A stretch of 64,000 nt of DNA, from the sequence record MN850603.1; one strand, 5' to 3'. Below, in pieces: positions 27,951 through 59,843 of this stretch. This DNA is from Escherichia phage pinkbiff. The notes below the pieces were generated by a model, which searched no databases, was not told the origin of the DNA, and saw nothing but the letters and a program-made list of their open reading frames with translations. The stretch's first letter is position 1. Each line of letters begins with the position of its first letter. Made by a program: the position numbers and the translations under genes.

Positions 27951-28646
27951 TCAATGTTTAACTAACATGGTTTTGATGTGTGGAAGGATTCTATTCACTT
28001 TCTGCACATTCTTCTCTGTATCTTCTATAAAACATACTATATTAAAGTAAGGCAGAATGCAAGACTGAATCATCCTCACTTTCAAACTTTCTGCACTTAT
28101 AGAGTTAGTTCCAAAACCACGCATAAAAAGCATATAATCATGCTCTGTGTTATGCCTTAAAAACATCTCAGTAGGTATTCTCTGAGATTCGCCTCTCGCT
28201 GTCAAGAGTCCAACGGCAGCATGATTAGCAATTGCATCAATGATATTGAAAACATACGTTGGTTTTGCTCTTACAGAGTCAAGAAGATTAGTGTACTGTG
28301 AAAATGAACCATCAGTCAATTCCGTTGAACAATCTTCGTGATTAAAATTTGTAAGAACTCCATCAATATCTGCTAAGATAAGATTACCTTTCTCTACAAG
28401 GTCTTTGTTGACTATGACTAAACTATCACGTTTTACACCTATGGATTGTCCAGTCTCTTTGTCCACAACGTTCACAATTGGTTCTGATGTGTGGAACTCT
28501 TCAAGTGAACATACAACTTCTCTTGCGGTGTCTTCAAAATCCCTGCACTGTTCTGGAGTCCATACACAGGAATCAAGACCTAACTCATGAGGGTGTAAGT
28601 CATAAGCATGGCACAATACTTCATCAAACTTTCTTAATTTTTTCAT
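27951..28646 (-). CDS. hypothetical protein with HAD-like motif (231 aa)
   Basis: Internal L-I-L-A-D-I-D-G-V-L-T resembles HAD phosphatase motif I, and G-L-L-T-A-R motif II; assignment tentative. Confidence 0.45.
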   Translation of the reverse strand: MKKLRKFDEVLCHAYDLHPHELGLDSCVWTPEQCRDFEDTAREVVCSLEEFHTSEPIVNVVDKETGQSIGVKRDSLVIVNKDLVEKGNLILADIDGVLTNFNHEDCSTELTDGSFSQYTNLLDSVRAKPTYVFNIIDAIANHAAVGLLTARGESQRIPTEMFLRHNTEHDYMLFMRGFGTNSISAESLKVRMIQSCILPYFNIVCFIEDTEKNVQKVNRILPHIKTMLVKH

Positions 28647-29172
28647 GATTTACCTTAGAAATGTTTGTTGCAAATTCACATTGAGCGATGACTTTCATAT
28701 TGTTATAGACATCTTGAGAGTATTTCTTAGCTTTAGGAATTTTGTATGAATACCCAGCATTGTATGATGCTAAAACTTTTTGTAAAGTCTTCTTTGACTT
28801 TGGTTGACCGTGTACCTTAGTCCAAAATTCAAGCTCTTTGTGTGTTTCCTTTGCAGCATAGTCAAAATCTTTTAAGAGTTTCTTTTTAGCCACATTAGGA
28901 CTGATTTTGTTACGCTTTACAACAGTCTTCAAGTGATTCTGGAAGATACCATAATCATGTGTCTTTTTATTCTCTACCTTCAGACCTAACCCTGACTCTT
29001 GTAAGGCTATAGCAGCTAGAGTGATACCCCAACCTTTACCCATGTTATTCTCACCATACTGGTAAGCTTTTAACATGTTTACTTTTTGGCTAATTGATAG
29101 CTCTGGGCAGTCAACTGCATAAGATAAGTGTGCTGTAAACATTAAGCACAAACCTAGAATCAATTTCTTCAT
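28624..29172 (-). CDS. secreted lytic-transglycosylase-like protein (182 aa)
   Basis: Signal peptide (MKKLILGLCLMFTAHLSYA); Q-E-S-G-L-G ... Y-G-I-F-Q resembles the SLT/GH23 catalytic Glu-Ser and YG-x-x-Q motifs. Confidence 0.5.
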   Translation of the reverse strand: MKKLILGLCLMFTAHLSYAVDCPELSISQKVNMLKAYQYGENNMGKGWGITLAAIALQESGLGLKVENKKTHDYGIFQNHLKTVVKRNKISPNVAKKKLLKDFDYAAKETHKELEFWTKVHGQPKSKKTLQKVLASYNAGYSYKIPKAKKYSQDVYNNMKVIAQCEFATNISKVNHEKIKKV

Positions 29173-29231: not shown

Positions 29232-29260
29232 ATAAAAAAGGCCGCCGAAGCAGCCTTTTA
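29232..29260 (-). terminator. rho-independent terminator (A-run/T-run on both sides)
   Basis: Minus strand: GGCTGC-TTCG-GCGGCC followed by TTTTTTATTTG. Confidence 0.65.
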
Positions 29261-29272
29261 AGAAATTACTTA

Positions 29273-30382
29273 TTAGATTTCACGTTTACGTTGGGAGATT
29301 AGTTCACCAGCAGTGCCAACGATGATATGCAAAGCTTCAGTCTTGCCATCCCATTCTTTCAGCACTTTACGTTGATTATCAACGATTGCTGCAACTTCAT
29401 AACGAGACGAACGCATCTTCATATCGTTGTAATCAGTTGGAACAGATACAACATCTCGTGGATGGACACGAACCTTCAGGATTGTATCACCTGAGAAGCA
29501 ACGAACATAATCCCAAGCACCAACGTGAAGACCCTGAGAGCAAGTCACGTTACGGTTATTATCAACCATCCAACGTGGCATTTCTACAATGTTACCCAAA
29601 TCATTAGGTACTCTGTAGGTGTGGGAGTCAACCAGCTTGCCTTCATGAGTAGAGACTTTCTTCCAACCAATGATGTAGCCTTCTTCATCAATTTCAACAT
29701 CAAGGTGAGATACGAATCCCCAAAGTTGTTCTACAGAATCTTTAGATGGGTTTTCCATCAGTTTTTCGAAGAACATCACAAGGCGTTCAAAACCCTTATC
29801 TCCAGTCTTCATCATGTGAAGAATACGGTCAACCAGAGTAGAACGCATCTCAACAGCACCGTAGAATAACTTGTCACCTTTGATGGTGATAGCACCCTGA
29901 GTGAAGTTTTCGATAGACTTACGAATGTTCATCAGTTCGAAAGCTTTCTTATACTCACCTGATACAACAGCCATCACGATTTCTTTGTAGTTCGGATGGG
30001 TAGATTCAACGATTTCAGAATCTGCACCGAAAGTCATGATAACAGAGTCGCCAGTAATCATGTACTCAATCTGGTTGCCATTCTGCATAGCTTCATGCAG
30101 TTTATTTACCGGAGCTTTCTGTACAGGCTCTTTAACAACCTTTTCAACTGGTTTGTCAGCTTTCTTTTTAACTGATTTAGCAACTTGCTTCAAAGTCTTC
30201 GTAGCTGGTTTAGAAGCTACCTTTTTCTTACCTTTTAAGGTTGCTTCATGACGCTCTACAGCACGACCAACTGAACGGGTTGAAGTATTGAACTTCTGTG
30301 CAATAGCTGTTTTAGTCAGCTTACCTTCTTTAACCAGTTCGTAAATTTCTGCGTCAATCTGTGCTTTAGTTTTAGTAGTCAT
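29273..30382 (-). CDS. rIIB: rIIB-like protein (369 aa), N-terminal HTH and Lys-rich linker
   Basis: Sits directly downstream of the rIIA-like gene; HTH-like segment T-K-T-A-I-A-Q-K-F-N-T-S-T-R-S-V-G-R-A-V. rIIB assignment is by synteny and size only. Confidence 0.4.
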   Translation of the reverse strand: MTTKTKAQIDAEIYELVKEGKLTKTAIAQKFNTSTRSVGRAVERHEATLKGKKKVASKPATKTLKQVAKSVKKKADKPVEKVVKEPVQKAPVNKLHEAMQNGNQIEYMITGDSVIMTFGADSEIVESTHPNYKEIVMAVVSGEYKKAFELMNIRKSIENFTQGAITIKGDKLFYGAVEMRSTLVDRILHMMKTGDKGFERLVMFFEKLMENPSKDSVEQLWGFVSHLDVEIDEEGYIIGWKKVSTHEGKLVDSHTYRVPNDLGNIVEMPRWMVDNNRNVTCSQGLHVGAWDYVRCFSGDTILKVRVHPRDVVSVPTDYNDMKMRSSRYEVAAIVDNQRKVLKEWDGKTEALHIIVGTAGELISQRKREI

Positions 30383-30461
30383 CTTATTACTCTCTCTTGT
30401 TAGTTAATAAATCATTTTGTAAGGCTATTCTAAGGGGCTTCGAAGCCCCTTGTCAAACACT

Positions 30462-32828
30462 TTAATCGTAAATTGTAGTTCCTTCTGGAACACACTTCAC
30501 ATCAAAACCTAAGAACTTACTCACTTCGATGGGTGACACTTTATTCCAATCTAAATGAGAAAGCAAGAAGTTTTCTTGTTTTCTTTTTGAAAGATAGTTT
30601 GTCAGTTTGATAACCATGCGGTCACCCGCTTTCTTAATCTTTTTGTACAGTTTTGTATCATTGTCAAGGCATGACTTCAAATCCTGAAGAACACTGATAG
30701 TGTAAGTGTATGCAAACGGTGCAGCAACGTATTGGATTTTACCAAACATTGCCTCTACAGCCTCTTCATTACCTTCTAGGAAGATAGTTTTGTTTGTGTC
30801 TCGTGAATAGCAATAACCACGAGAAATCTTCCTGTTATTGAACGTAAAGTTTCTGGCAATAATCCAACTGCTTGTCAGGTCTAGGACACCATTCATATAG
30901 ATACGTGTCATATACCTGTTGTGATTAATCCAGTGAACATCAGTTAAGCTGTCATTCAAGAGCTTCTCATCTACTTCAATCCAGTCTTCTGGTATCTTTT
31001 TCCAATTTGCTTTTCGGAAAACATAGACTGTCTTCCCTATAACATTAGCAACTGACTTAGCTACATCTTCTGGAGATGAGCAAAAACATTTGCCATCAAC
31101 TGTGTCGCCTACTGCCTTAATGTAAAGCTGAGGTTCCTCAATTGTGTCTAAGTCTTCTGACACCTCTGTGTATGAGGCTACAGACTCTGCTGGAACTGCT
31201 TTCCAGAGTTTTACAACACCCCTCACAGCTTCTTTACGCTGATAATGGTGTTCCTTATCAGACATCTTCACAATCTTTAACAAACTTTTATCAAGTTTAT
31301 GTAGGTTGATTAAATCATCTAACTCTTTTTCAGTCGAGAATACAAACACAATACCATTGTATCTGTGGAACAGGCTTGACTCGTTAGCGTAGTCTCGACA
31401 TGCACCACGCAGAATCTGATTGCGGCCTACAGTCTTCTCAGTGCCATTTTTATTACGACGGTCATTAATCACGAACAAAAACTGTTCAATTTGGCTTTTA
31501 CGCATTGCACCAAAGATATTGAACATACTTGCCTCTTGAGTGTAGGAAAGTGCTGTTGCACGAATCTTACTCTCTAAAGAGTTGAACTTGACATAAGCAA
31601 CTGGATTATAAAGATAATCCACTTTAGGGATATTGTTCCCGTTCCTATCAACCTTGATATTACCTTTACCGTCACGTTCATAAATGACTGAGCCGTCTTC
31701 TGCGTAGATAATCCCACGACGAATGTTTAGTAATTCTTCTTCCAGAGAATCAAGCTTAACACCTCCCCACTCTAGCTTTGGACACACAGCATTAAACATC
31801 TCTCGTGAGTTCAAACGTAACTCAGCATAAGCCTGTGCAGCATCCATGAGTGTAGGTTGGCTATTAACTTTCTTGATAACATCCTTTGTAATTGCTTCAG
31901 TTATCTTTTTAGTAGCCTCAATGATAACATTTTTTGTCGTATCATTCATCTGCAATGCTTCACGAGAAGCTGCAATAGCAACTGAGCCAATAGGCATGTA
32001 GATGTTTACAAGGTCTACGCTCCTACGGAAAAATTCTGGCAAGACTTTGAAGAAATCATCACCAAGTAATGCTTCCATGTTAACAGGGTATGCAATGTTA
32101 CCCATCACCACATTAAACTCTGTCCTGTTACCACTAGAACGCCAGCTTTGCTTATGAATCATGGCATCATAAACACCTTCTTCACGGGCAATGACGTTCA
32201 TATCTGCTAATACATCGTCATACTCGATATTGCTTTCTGGTTTTACAGCAAAGTATGAGTATACGTGACCAGCTTCTTCAAAGAATTTTGAGATACGATG
32301 GTCAGCAACTGCTACACGTACAGCTAAGCCATTAGGTTCCTTTGTTGGGTTGGTAGTCAGCTTAGTCACTTGAGGAATACCATTCTCAAGATAAACAGAG
32401 TACTTATTAACAACACCGTCAACATAGCTAGACACTGTGAATGACTGAGCAATTGCAAATGGAGATTTTGAGCCGATACCCATTGCACCAATGTAATCAT
32501 TAGAGTCATTCTTCGTAGAAGCCCCGTAGTTTAGGTACAAACTCATAACTTTATCATGAGTCAATCCAGTTCCAAAATCACGGACTTCAAAGTAAGGCTC
32601 AAAACGAGTAGGTAAATGCACATGGAACGGGATATTCTCTTTTCCAGCTTCTTTCTGAGCATCTACTGCGTTACATGACAGTTCACGAATCACTGCCCTT
32701 TCTTTAAAGGTATATACACCAGAACTCAGAAGGCTGAACATTTCAGGTGTCATTGTAATCTGTGCTTGAGACGTCTCTAAAGAAGTTGAACTCTTAATCA
32801 CTTCTGCGTGGTCGTTTACCATGCGCAT
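30462..32828 (-). CDS. rIIA: rIIA-like protein with GHKL-type ATPase fold (788 aa)
   Basis: N-terminal Bergerat-fold motifs (E-L-S-C-N-A-V-D-A ... D-F-G-T-G-L ... G-A-M-G-I-G-S-K-S) as in T4 rIIA; size and pairing with a downstream partner gene. Confidence 0.6.
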   Translation of the reverse strand: MRMVNDHAEVIKSSTSLETSQAQITMTPEMFSLLSSGVYTFKERAVIRELSCNAVDAQKEAGKENIPFHVHLPTRFEPYFEVRDFGTGLTHDKVMSLYLNYGASTKNDSNDYIGAMGIGSKSPFAIAQSFTVSSYVDGVVNKYSVYLENGIPQVTKLTTNPTKEPNGLAVRVAVADHRISKFFEEAGHVYSYFAVKPESNIEYDDVLADMNVIAREEGVYDAMIHKQSWRSSGNRTEFNVVMGNIAYPVNMEALLGDDFFKVLPEFFRRSVDLVNIYMPIGSVAIAASREALQMNDTTKNVIIEATKKITEAITKDVIKKVNSQPTLMDAAQAYAELRLNSREMFNAVCPKLEWGGVKLDSLEEELLNIRRGIIYAEDGSVIYERDGKGNIKVDRNGNNIPKVDYLYNPVAYVKFNSLESKIRATALSYTQEASMFNIFGAMRKSQIEQFLFVINDRRNKNGTEKTVGRNQILRGACRDYANESSLFHRYNGIVFVFSTEKELDDLINLHKLDKSLLKIVKMSDKEHHYQRKEAVRGVVKLWKAVPAESVASYTEVSEDLDTIEEPQLYIKAVGDTVDGKCFCSSPEDVAKSVANVIGKTVYVFRKANWKKIPEDWIEVDEKLLNDSLTDVHWINHNRYMTRIYMNGVLDLTSSWIIARNFTFNNRKISRGYCYSRDTNKTIFLEGNEEAVEAMFGKIQYVAAPFAYTYTISVLQDLKSCLDNDTKLYKKIKKAGDRMVIKLTNYLSKRKQENFLLSHLDWNKVSPIEVSKFLGFDVKCVPEGTTIYD

Positions 32829-32856: not shown

Positions 32857-33033
32857 TTACTTATTAAACATTTTACCAGAACCACCACACATAGGGCAAC
32901 ATCCTGCCCTTGTGTACCCCTCTCCATTACAGTAGTCACATTTTTTGTGCTCTGCAAAGTACTTACAAAGGAGGTAAACAAATACTGCTACACTACCAAG
33001 TGACAGTAAAATTTCTATCCAATATGCTTGCAT
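32857..33033 (-). CDS. small membrane-anchored zinc-ribbon protein (58 aa)
   Basis: Not in the track (under 60 aa); ATG 33033 with GAGAGGTGAG SD; TM helix then C-x2-C ... C-x2-C. Confidence 0.4.
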   Translation of the reverse strand: MQAYWIEILLSLGSVAVFVYLLCKYFAEHKKCDYCNGEGYTRAGCCPMCGGSGKMFNK

Positions 33034-33350: not shown

Positions 33351-33364
33351 AGTTTTCTCCAGAA

Positions 33365-33390
33365 ATTAAAAAGGCTCCCGTAGGAGCCTC
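33365..33390 (-). terminator. rho-independent terminator
   Basis: Minus strand: GGCTCC-TACG-GGAGCC followed by TTTTTAATTT. Confidence 0.65.
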
Positions 33391-33403
33391 TTATCATATA
33401 CTT

Positions 33404-49278: not shown

Positions 49279-49781
49279 TCATCACCTTTATTAGCAAACT
49301 CTTTGTGTAAACGTTGACGTTCCCTATTTACAACCTCTGCTGCTTCATCAATAGTGTCATAGTTGCCGAAGAAGTAGACCCTCTTCTTAAAAGTTATCTG
49401 TGTAGACCACTTACCATACTGTTTTTTGTAGTACACACCTTTAACACCTGATTTATTGTTCTTATTGAGCAATCTATTACATTGGTTCTCTGATAACGTA
49501 CATGCTCTAAGATTTACCCAACGGTTATCTAGTGTTACATGATTTTTATGGTCAACACACTCAGGGAGGTAACCATCCATATACAGAACAGCTAGTGTAT
49601 GTGCATAATAGCCCTTACCAAACAAATAAATTCTGGTGTAACCTTTTAAGTTTGTACCTGCAACAGAGCCAATTTTTGTGTGTCTAGCAGACTTCTTAAT
49701 CCAAGTAAAGACCCCTGTTTCGGGGTCATAGTGTAGGTATTCTTTAAGAGTTTGTTGGGTTAACATTTGGTGTCCATCCAT
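49275..49781 (-). CDS. HNH homing endonuclease with AP2-type domain (168 aa)
   Basis: V-D-H-K-N-H ... N-L-R-A-C-T-L-S-E-N, C-terminal K-S-G-V-K-G-V ... F-x-x-x-D-E-A; overlaps the 3' end of the FEN gene. Confidence 0.78.
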   Translation of the reverse strand: MDGHQMLTQQTLKEYLHYDPETGVFTWIKKSARHTKIGSVAGTNLKGYTRIYLFGKGYYAHTLAVLYMDGYLPECVDHKNHVTLDNRWVNLRACTLSENQCNRLLNKNNKSGVKGVYYKKQYGKWSTQITFKKRVYFFGNYDTIDEAAEVVNRERQRLHKEFANKGDE

Positions 49782-59358: not shown

Positions 59359-59843
59359 CACTTCAAGACTACAAGGATAATTCTATTTACGACCCCGACA
59401 AAGGGGTCTTCTACAACAAGTATGACAGGAATAGACAAGCTAAAGCTGGGCAGATTGCAGGAGGTGCTGATGCTTACGGTTACAAAGTACTTAAATTCAA
59501 AGATGTCGTAATAAAAATTCATCACCTCGTTTGGTGGTTCGAACATGGTTACAAACCCACTAAGATGATAGACCACATTGATGGTAACAGAAGTAATAAT
59601 CACATTTCTAATCTTAGGGAGACTGATAAATACGGAAATGCTCAAAATAGAGTAAAGCAGACGACTAACAAATCAGGTTACAAGGGTGTATATTACTTTA
59701 AAGACTGCAATAAGTGGAGGGCAGCTATAACATGTAGAGGTAAAAGGACATCACTTGGTTTATTTGACACCCCTGAAGAAGCCCATAAAGCTTACTGTGA
59801 AGCTGCTATTAAACTCCACGGAGAGTTTGCAAAACTAAGTTGA
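59340..59843 (+). CDS. HNH homing endonuclease with AP2-type domain (167 aa)
   Basis: I-D-H-I-D-G-N-R-S-N-N-H-I-S-N-L-R, C-terminal K-S-G-Y-K-G-V ... F-D-T-P-E-E-A; overlaps the last 19 nt of the polymerase gene. Confidence 0.8.
   Translation: MVRRTLTLQDYKDNSIYDPDKGVFYNKYDRNRQAKAGQIAGGADAYGYKVLKFKDVVIKIHHLVWWFEHGYKPTKMIDHIDGNRSNNHISNLRETDKYGNAQNRVKQTTNKSGYKGVYYFKDCNKWRAAITCRGKRTSLGLFDTPEEAHKAYCEAAIKLHGEFAKLS

Follow-up and report, generated by a model that had tools for sequence, protein, structure and literature searches.

Genes for a Probable rIIA/rIIB Counter-Defence Module in the Felixounavirus Escherichia Phage Pinkbiff

Introduction

[quoted passage not shown] Escherichia phage pinkbiff, the source of the DNA analysed here, is a Felixounavirus, one of the Felix O1-like myoviruses that infect E. 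coli and Salmonella. The window, i.e., the whole stretch of 64,000 nucleotides that was studied (sequence record MN850603.1), raises the question of whether two neighbouring genes of this phage form an rII module, and, if so, at which step such a module might interfere with host defences. An earlier note, made from the sequence alone, had described the two genes as encoding a GHKL-type ATPase resembling rIIA, followed by a protein with a helix-turn-helix (HTH) and a Lys-rich linker in the position of rIIB, and had ascribed to the pair a role in resistance to exclusion systems.

Results

Identification of the gene pair

Both ORFs described in the earlier note, of 788 and 369 aa, were found on the minus strand, at positions 30462–32828 (rIIA) and 29273–30382 (rIIB), and, according to the ORF list, they are separated by a gap of 79 nt. 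Profile searches against the rIIA/rIIB families matched the first product to phrog_612 (RIIA) over its full length (E-value, 3e-189; residues 1–770 aligned to profile positions 1–716 of 725) and the second to phrog_609 (RIIB; E-value, 3e-88). The same families are the best PHROG hits of T4 rIIA (phrog_612; E-value, 9e-250) and T4 rIIB, respectively. In BLASTP, residues 11–339 of the 369 in rIIB align with residues 13–312 of the 312 in T4 rIIB (35% identity; E-value, 6e-61), while rIIA shares 32% identity with T4 rIIA over residues 24–317 (E-value, 3e-37; hhalign probability, 100%, E-value, 3.9e-57). The latter alignment is confined to the N-terminal ~320 residues, the C-terminal half of the protein being too divergent for pairwise detection. 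The assignment of the ATPase to the rIIA family was upheld, other GHKL models scoring far below their cut-offs; that of the downstream protein to rIIB was upheld as well.

The arrangement of rIIA directly upstream of rIIB on one strand is common to phages T4, Bas63, SUSP1, and adrianh. At the DNA level, the pair is 97.7% identical to that of adrianh, where it is labelled rIIA/rIIB; the annotated records among the matches listed (276 matching records) bear the same labels, and the record of Felix O1 (AF320576) carries a 'putative RIIB' entry. The rIIA/rIIB identity of the two genes is thus already known from the public records of this phage group. Homologues of rIIA/rIIB were found in ~2,900 of 50,697 phage records (~6%). 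Based on these comparisons, the pair is considered, with a probability of about 0.9, to be an rIIA/rIIB module, that is, a putative two-protein counter-defence device that would allow the phage to complete infection of hosts with abortive-infection systems.

The rIIA protein

The rIIA protein is a soluble protein of ~89 kDa, and no transmembrane helix was found in either rIIA or rIIB. Residues ~18–325 (positions 31854–32777, minus strand) comprise an intact Bergerat (GHKL) ATPase domain, followed by a 'transducer-like' one of the kind known from Hsp90, MutL, MORC, and topo II. The N, G1 and G2 boxes are present together with the Bergerat fold, PF13589 is assigned to homologues of rIIA, and all of the ATP-binding motifs, including the motif-I glutamate E49, are invariant. 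The invariant E49 and the glycine-rich loops suggest that rIIA binds and hydrolyses ATP.

The solved folds closest to rIIA are those of TRAP1/Hsp90, topo II, MORC3, and MutL. The Pfam search of rIIA found no domain, and phmmer against PDB sequences gave no match; the GHKL relation was revealed only by profile and fold searches. The NCBIfam matches (HSP90, sacsin, and the restriction-enzyme GHKL BbrUII) had E-values of 3e-11 or worse and lay far below the cut-offs, and PADLOC matched rIIA to the GHKL part of TmtA only, giving nothing for rIIB. Membership of rIIA in the Hsp90, MutL, MORC, or topoisomerase families proper was rejected, as no model score exceeded the curated cut-off (NCBIfam HSP90, 42.5 bits versus a cut-off of 455). 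With the GHL/MORC branch as a whole (Hsp90/TRAP1, MutL, topo II/GyrB, MORC), rIIA shares the Bergerat motifs and the architecture of an ATPase joined to a transducer, whereas its C-terminal half is unrelated to that branch, and client, DNA-gate, and endonuclease domains are absent.

The rIIB protein

The rIIB protein (~42 kDa) starts with an HTH domain, which a polybasic, disordered linker joins to a conserved domain at the C-terminus. The N-terminal three-helix HTH domain (residues ~5–51; positions 30230–30370, minus strand) resembles sigma region 4 and the DNA-binding domains of LuxR/DeoR. A profile search of rIIB gave weak HTH matches only (E-values of at least 0.018), and the sole phmmer match in PDB, E2F4, was dismissed as a chance hit (E-value, 0.56). 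The linker (residues ~52–93; positions 30104–30229, minus strand) is predicted to be disordered, with residues 54–89 having pLDDT values below 50 and being modelled as disordered, and it is indeed rich in Lys, as the earlier note had claimed (29% Lys and a pI of 10.2 for residues 46–100). Both its length and its sequence differ between relatives.

The remaining part of the protein (residues 94–369; positions 29276–30103, minus strand) is a conserved globular region that defines the family, and in many relatives the alignment begins only at about residue 100–130. Residues F204, G235, and P308, as well as the motif C281-x2-G284-x-H286, are invariant in 81 sequences; in T4 rIIB the motif appears as TCSRGLHV. 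The assignment to PF26926 was read from the precomputed labels of homologues that are 78–95% identical to rIIB of the window. Comparison of the C-terminal domain with solved structures yielded no match, and an ADP-ribosyltransferase fold was rejected, as the combination of a significant structural match and the catalytic motif was not found.

Selection and mosaic alleles

Both rIIA and rIIB are under strong purifying selection, with dN/dS values of 0.03–0.26 for the two genes in comparison with three relatives and of 0.03–0.13 for rIIA. The last ~135 residues of rIIB represent an allele other than that of Bas63, with a dS of ~1.05 in this segment versus 0.02–0.17 elsewhere in the gene. Positive selection in the C-terminus was considered and rejected: since dN/dS is 0.24 there and dS is likewise high, the segment is better explained as an imported allele than by a dN/dS above 1. 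Among Felix O1-like phages, the rIIB alleles are mosaic in their middle and C-terminal segments, and all four combinations are seen.

It might also be speculated, although this is regarded as unlikely, that the C-terminal domain of rIIB, with its invariant Cys-x4-His, is the real effector of the module, its fold being a new one that serves catalysis or ligand binding, and that allele swapping reflects an arms race with host systems that sense rIIB. The arms-race reading is modelled on the CARD/gasdermin system that senses rIIB of T6; if it were true, rIIB alleles would differ in their counter-defence or trigger spectra.

Comparison with experimentally studied rII modules

Bas63 (Escherichia phage JohannRWettstein) has the same genus, gene order, and neighbours as the phage of the window. 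Its genes bas63_0084/0085 (g84/g85), labelled 'membrane integrity protector rIIA/rIIB', encode proteins identical to those of the window at 777 of 788 (99%) residues for rIIA and 324 of 368 (88%) for rIIB. The two phages differ in that the window has no orthologue of bas63_0081 but does have an additional HNH gene close to the pair. Deletion of either g84 or g85 lowered the plating efficiency of Bas63 on hosts with QatABCD, a system that includes a nuclease and a QueC-like enzyme, by 1e4–1e5, and complementation largely restored it (bioRxiv 10.1101/2024.10.10.617714). As the C-terminal allele of rIIB differs between the two phages (88% identity overall), this result is not surely transferable to rIIB of the window.

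SUSP1 (Ounavirinae, Suspvirus) belongs to the same subfamily and shows the same synteny, but represents another genus. Its rIIB is 82% identical to that of the window and has a C-terminal allele of the same type, whereas its rIIA is much more divergent (63% identity), above all in the C-terminal half (dN 0.44). Knock-down of rII in SUSP1, T4, N4, and other phages made them sensitive to RexAB of lambda, and divergent rII modules, including that of SUSP1, were needed against RexAB and dispensable without it (PMC11879866). In T4, each of the two genes is conditionally essential, being needed on RexAB (bioRxiv 10.1101/2025.11.20.689424). The T4 pair corresponds to that of the window in PHROG families, gene order, and the domain plan of both proteins, and the two pairs have in common the GHKL motifs and the 'TCSxGLHV' core of rIIB; on the other hand, rIIA and rIIB of the window are 63 and 57 residues longer than those of T4, and the identity is only 32% and 35%, respectively. 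Expression of T6 rIIB alone is toxic and sets off a CARD/gasdermin system, as would be expected if this system directly senses the protein or what it does.

The anti-exclusion role put forward in the earlier note is backed by experiments on close relatives, namely SUSP1 (RexAB) and Bas63 (QatABCD), and the range of defences countered by rII is wider than Rex alone. For the window itself, the finding matters little, and its value is contextual. Since QatABCD, which is unrelated to RexAB, was shown to be a second defence that rII of a Felixounavirus (Bas63) counters, the group offers a convenient small-genome model for rII. The question for such a model is how one GHKL ATPase and one HTH protein act against mechanistically different abortive-infection systems.

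Discussion

A tentative answer is that rIIA and rIIB may work as a single complex on the sensing step of these systems, and not on the membrane effector. In such a complex, rIIA would be a dimerising clamp driven by ATP, and the HTH and polybasic linker of rIIB would tether it either to DNA or to the inner membrane, which is anionic. The complex would mask or remodel phage DNA-protein intermediates that are detected by DNA-binding sensors such as RexA, and this masking would prevent depolarising or nucleolytic effectors from being activated. The focus on DNA derives in part from the finding that RexA binds DNA and that mutations altering this binding abolish the exclusion of T4 rII (PMC11077077). 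It also derives from the nearest structural relatives of rIIA, among which are MutL, MORC, and topo II, all of them DNA clamps.

Alternatively, although this reading is likewise held with considerable doubt, rIIA and rIIB could be peripheral proteins of the inner membrane that directly block or counterbalance ion leakage via effectors such as RexB (perhaps also QatB), or that time lysis. In the classical literature, the T4 rII proteins are called membrane-associated, a property no less compatible with action at the membrane than with action on DNA. The database labels 'RIIA/RIIB lysis inhibitor' and 'membrane integrity protector' agree with such a location; however, 'lysis inhibitor' is a historical name, derived from the T4 plaque phenotype. 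The polybasic linker of rIIB could bind anionic lipids. In addition, RexB is a membrane ion channel (PMC12894663), and membrane depolarisation by QatB was proposed by the PhageMaP authors (bioRxiv 10.1101/2024.10.10.617714). Against a membrane-level role, neither protein has a transmembrane segment, rIIB starts with an HTH, which is a typical DNA-binding module, the proteins structurally related to rIIA have DNA or client proteins as their targets, and QatABCD possesses the nuclease and the QueC-like enzyme mentioned above.

It is rather improbable that rIIB is mainly a transcription factor which tunes phage or host expression, with resistance to exclusion arising indirectly. The likeness of its HTH to sigma region 4 and LuxR/DeoR would suit such a role, and Iyer et al. 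(2021) count rIIB among phage-specific transcription factors (PMC7824862). However, it is the C-terminal domain and not the HTH that defines the family, many relatives being alignable only from about residue 100–130; moreover, T6 rIIB on its own is toxic and triggers the CARD/gasdermin system, and rIIA is equally required.

Even less credible is the possibility that the 788-aa protein belongs to another GHKL family, as an Hsp90-like chaperone, a MutL/MORC-like DNA clamp, or a topoisomerase ATPase subunit, that it serves phage replication as a housekeeping protein, and that its gene adjoins an rIIB-like one by chance. Its nearest solved folds (TRAP1/Hsp90, topo II, MORC3, MutL), the weak NCBIfam HSP90 and sacsin matches, and the PADLOC match to the GHKL part of TmtA might be quoted in favour; yet the NCBIfam matches are far under the cut-offs (42 bits versus 455 for HSP90), the match to phrog_612, which also holds T4 rIIA, is full-length (E-value, 3e-189), BLASTP aligns the protein with T4 rIIA (E-value, 3e-37), and what was recovered of the orthologue in Bas63 was a conditional role, against QatABCD, and not a general requirement. 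Finally, the view that rIIA and rIIB are relics in decay that no longer serve any function, favoured by nothing except their dispensability in defence-free laboratory hosts, is refuted by the selection analysis (dN/dS of 0.03–0.26 against three relatives), and stands against intact frames, invariant catalytic motifs, and homologues in ~2,900 of the 50,697 phage records.

Regulatory elements and neighbouring genes

The rIIA–rIIB intergenic region contains a promoter-like site, TTGACA-18 nt-TAGAAT (positions 30427–30456, minus strand), that matches 11 of the 12 consensus positions and has a GC hairpin, GGGGCTTCGAAGCCCC, inside its spacer. The hexamers and the hairpin stem are kept in adrianh, Bas63, and SUSP1. 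As the pattern occurs once in the window versus 1.06 matches expected by chance, a promoter-like function is suggested by the position and conservation of the site only. A hairpin resembling an intrinsic terminator lies 14 nt past the rIIB stop codon (positions 29236–29259, minus strand); 5 of the 10 bp in its stem are GC pairs, and the T-run TTTTTTATTT comes next.

Upstream of rIIA, a small ORF encoding a membrane and zinc-ribbon protein is found. It was considered as a counterpart of T4 rIIA.1, i.e., as a conserved third component of the module, and rejected, the two being unrelated (phrog_3931 versus phrog_1683/PF24210). The rIIA/rIIB pair is also adjoined by NAD-salvage counter-defence genes.

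The rIIA/rIIB Locus and Its Family Assignment

The two ORFs described in an earlier note as an rIIA/rIIB-like pair are present at 30462..32828 (rIIA, 788 aa) and 29273..30382 (rIIB, 369 aa), adjacent to each other on the minus strand and separated by a gap of 79 nt. Megablast search with the 3,556-bp rII region matched 276 phage records, the best match being Escherichia phage adrianh (Felixounavirus, Ounavirinae; 97.7% identity, 100% coverage). This rIIA/rIIB pair is known and has been annotated before: it carries this annotation in adrianh and in the other listed matches with informative annotation, and the Felix O1 record (AF320576) has an entry "putative RIIB" with 95.7% identity to rIIB of the window. 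The neighborhood is collinear across the window, adrianh, Escherichia phage JohannRWettstein (Bas63), and SUSP1 (Suspvirus), with the local gene order PRPP synthetase, NAMPT, small ORFs, rIIA, rIIB, SLT-like protein, polynucleotide kinase, and spanins.

The proposed family membership was supported both by profiles and by direct BLASTP matches. The best PHROGs of rIIA (phrog_612 "RIIA"; E-value, 3 × 10−189, full length) and rIIB (phrog_609 "RIIB"; E-value, 3 × 10−88) are also those of T4 rIIA (E-value, 9 × 10−250) and T4 rIIB (E-value, 6.6 × 10−111). In BLASTP, rIIA residues 24–317 share 32% identity with T4 rIIA (E-value, 3 × 10−37), and rIIB shares 35% identity with nearly all of T4 rIIB (residues 11–339, N-terminal region included; E-value, 6 × 10−61). 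Profile-to-sequence alignment of rIIA with T4 rIIA gave an E-value of 3.9 × 10−57, and no pairwise alignment to T4 rIIA was obtained for the C-terminal half of rIIA. Of 50,697 phage records, 2,925 contain a homologue of rIIA and 2,907 one of rIIB.

The pairwise identity of the window rIIA to T4 rIIA covers the N-terminal 300 residues only. A "high sequence homology (>80%)" to T4 RIIA/B is stated for the Bas63 counterparts, g84 and g85 (bioRxiv 10.1101/2024.10.10.617714), whereas the window proteins share 99% and 88% identity with those of Bas63 but only 32% and 35% with T4 rIIA and rIIB.

Domain Architecture of rIIA and rIIB

In an alignment of 72 sequences, the invariant columns of rIIA are exactly the Bergerat motifs, i.e., the N (E49-x3-N53-x2-D56), G1 (D84-x-G86-x-G88), and G2 (G114-x2-G117-x-G119) boxes, together with K121, which bears out the GHKL/Bergerat ATPase N-terminus noted earlier. 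Also invariant are R289/E290, located toward the end of the second domain, which may provide the gamma-phosphate "switch" residue. Based on these motifs, the match of the rIIA family profile to the TRAP1/Hsp90 N-terminal domain (E-value, 1.4 × 10−5), the presence of PF13589 (HATPase_c_3) on several homologues, and the AlphaFold2 model (mean pLDDT, 87), the N-terminal ~325 residues of rIIA are a two-domain ATPase and transducer-like module of the GHL/MORC branch. By sequence score, rIIA falls outside the cellular GHL/MORC families (HSP90 model, 42 bits vs. a cut-off of 455), and no transmembrane helix is predicted in it (maximum KD19, 1.29).

The AlphaFold2 model of rIIB has a mean pLDDT of 85.9, with residues 54–89 disordered (pLDDT below 50), and no transmembrane helix is predicted. 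The HTH and Lys-rich linker attributed to this protein were both recovered: Lys accounts for 29% of residues 46–100, and HTH matches are found in relatives (HTH_23 and HTH_Tnp_ISL3 in 17/81 each, other HTH families in fewer), although the Pfam match of the window rIIB itself is sub-threshold. The conserved core spans residues ~94–369, with F204, G235, V273, C281, G284, H286, and P308 invariant.

Selection and Mosaicism

Nei-Gojobori dN/dS values against adrianh, Bas63, and SUSP1 are 0.03–0.13 for rIIA and 0.08–0.26 for rIIB, and such low values show both genes to be functional and under purifying selection. While rIIA is at least 95% identical in 213 records, rIIB spans 80 to 100%. Compared with Bas63, dS along rIIB is 0.015 in residues 1–100, 0.17 in 101–235, and 1.05 in 236–369. 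Since dN/dS in the last segment is 0.24, it is an imported allele and not a product of positive selection; the window carries the SUSP1-type C-terminal allele. Among cluster representatives of Felix O1-like phages, the mid-segment (~113–155) and C-terminal (~236–369) variants occur in all four combinations, indicating that rIIB alleles have been shuffled by recombination.

Function in Relatives and Proposed Mechanism

Bas63 (MZ501086), a member of the same genus, has rIIA and rIIB identical to those of the window at 777/788 and 324/368 residues, respectively; in SUSP1 the identities are 63% and 82%. Deletion of g84 or g85 in Bas63 is reported to reduce plating on QatABCD, a bacterial defense system, by 1e4–1e5, with complementation largely rescuing it (PhageMaP, bioRxiv 10.1101/2024.10.10.617714). 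When rIIA or rIIB was knocked down by CRISPRi-ART in T4, MM02, EdH4, SUSP1, and N4, plating dropped only on cells expressing RexAB, the lambda exclusion system (PMC11879866), and HIDEN-SEQ confirmed both T4 genes as conditionally essential on RexAB (10.1101/2025.11.20.689424). In relatives, each rII gene has been shown to be needed against RexAB or QatABCD and to be otherwise dispensable. These experiments (SUSP1, T4, N4, and others against RexAB; Bas63 against QatABCD) back the role against exclusion systems suggested in the earlier note, whose observation and interpretation were both correct. The RIIA/RIIB orthologues of Bas37 are among the genes labelled in the clinical-isolate fitness plots of the HIDEN-SEQ study (10.1101/2025.11.20.689424). 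Conversely, a CARD/NLR-gasdermin system is set off by T6 rIIB on its own (10.1101/2023.05.28.542683).

According to the literature, the mechanism of rII action is not established (PMC12894663). RexA binds DNA, and mutations altering its DNA binding abolish T4 rII exclusion (PMC11077077). The window pair itself displays its identity, domain architecture, intact ATPase motifs, lack of predicted transmembrane helices, and purifying selection; beyond this, rIIA and rIIB would act as one ATP-dependent complex blocking sensor activation. The HTH and polybasic linker of rIIB would bring the rIIA clamp to DNA or the membrane-proximal nucleoid, where the clamp would mask the signal read by RexA-like sensors. 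This version, with targeting by rIIB and signal masking, is favored tentatively (probability of roughly 0.3), and the classical membrane-level model of rII action is about equally likely.

Putative Regulatory Sites and Neighboring Genes

The rIIA–rIIB intergenic region contains a promoter-like site on the minus strand (TTGACA-18-TAGAAT, 30456..30427) with a GC hairpin, GGGGCTTCGAAGCCCC, in its 18-nt spacer. The hexamers and hairpin stem are kept in adrianh, Bas63, and SUSP1, and the loop varies; one match of such a pattern in 64 kb is no more than expected by chance. The site may serve rIIB as attenuator and promoter in one. A strong terminator-like hairpin with a T-run (29259..29236, minus strand) lies 14 nt past the rIIB end.

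Genes for NAMPT (nicotinamide phosphoribosyltransferase, 33404–35185) and PRPP synthetase (ribose-phosphate pyrophosphokinase, about 35703–36581) are located just upstream of rII on the minus strand. In Bas63, g79 and g80 are reported to be co-essential in Sir2-HerA defense and to counter multiple defense systems (PhageMaP, 10.1101/2024.10.10.617714); going by the locus-tag numbers, they would correspond to PRPP synthetase and NAMPT. If so, ~29.2–36.6 kb of the window would be a counter-defense gene cluster. An HNH/AP2 homing-endonuclease gene (35200–35691, minus strand) is inserted between the two; SUSP1 agp076, which occupies this site, shares 94% identity with it, but in adrianh and Bas63 the gene is absent from that site. 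The flanking PRPP synthetase shares only 77% identity with that of Bas63, compared to 97% for NAMPT, a difference that may have arisen by co-conversion with the endonuclease. Two more distant paralogues are found at about 49293–49748 and 59388–59834.

The product of a 58-aa ORF (32857–33033, minus strand), 28 nt upstream of rIIA, has a single N-terminal helix of strong hydrophobicity (KD19, 2.1) and, after it, two CxxCxGxG motifs (CDYCNGEG and CPMCGGSG) resembling a DnaJ-type zinc ribbon. The ORF matches phrog_3931, labelled as unknown function (E-value, 8 × 10−34), with only a sub-threshold match to Pfam DnaJ_CXXCXGXG, and is kept at the same place in Bas63 (bas63_0083, 98% identity) and SUSP1 (agp080, 47%). 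T4 rIIA.1, considered as its counterpart, is an unrelated gene and was rejected. Between NAMPT and a 111-aa ORF lies a variable slot (33351–33420), in which the window has no homologue of bas63_0081/adrianh_53 (114 aa) or SUSP1 agp078 and retains only a promoter-like site (33420..33393, 11/12 matches) and a terminator-like hairpin (33392..33369).

Immediately past the rIIB terminator, a minus-strand gene with its own promoter-like sequence (28624–29172) encodes a 182-aa protein that has a signal-like hydrophobic segment at its N-terminus and matches SLT transglycosylase below the threshold (E-value, 6 × 10−4). The protein matches phrog_600, labelled as unknown function, and is annotated as "putative lysin" in adrianh.
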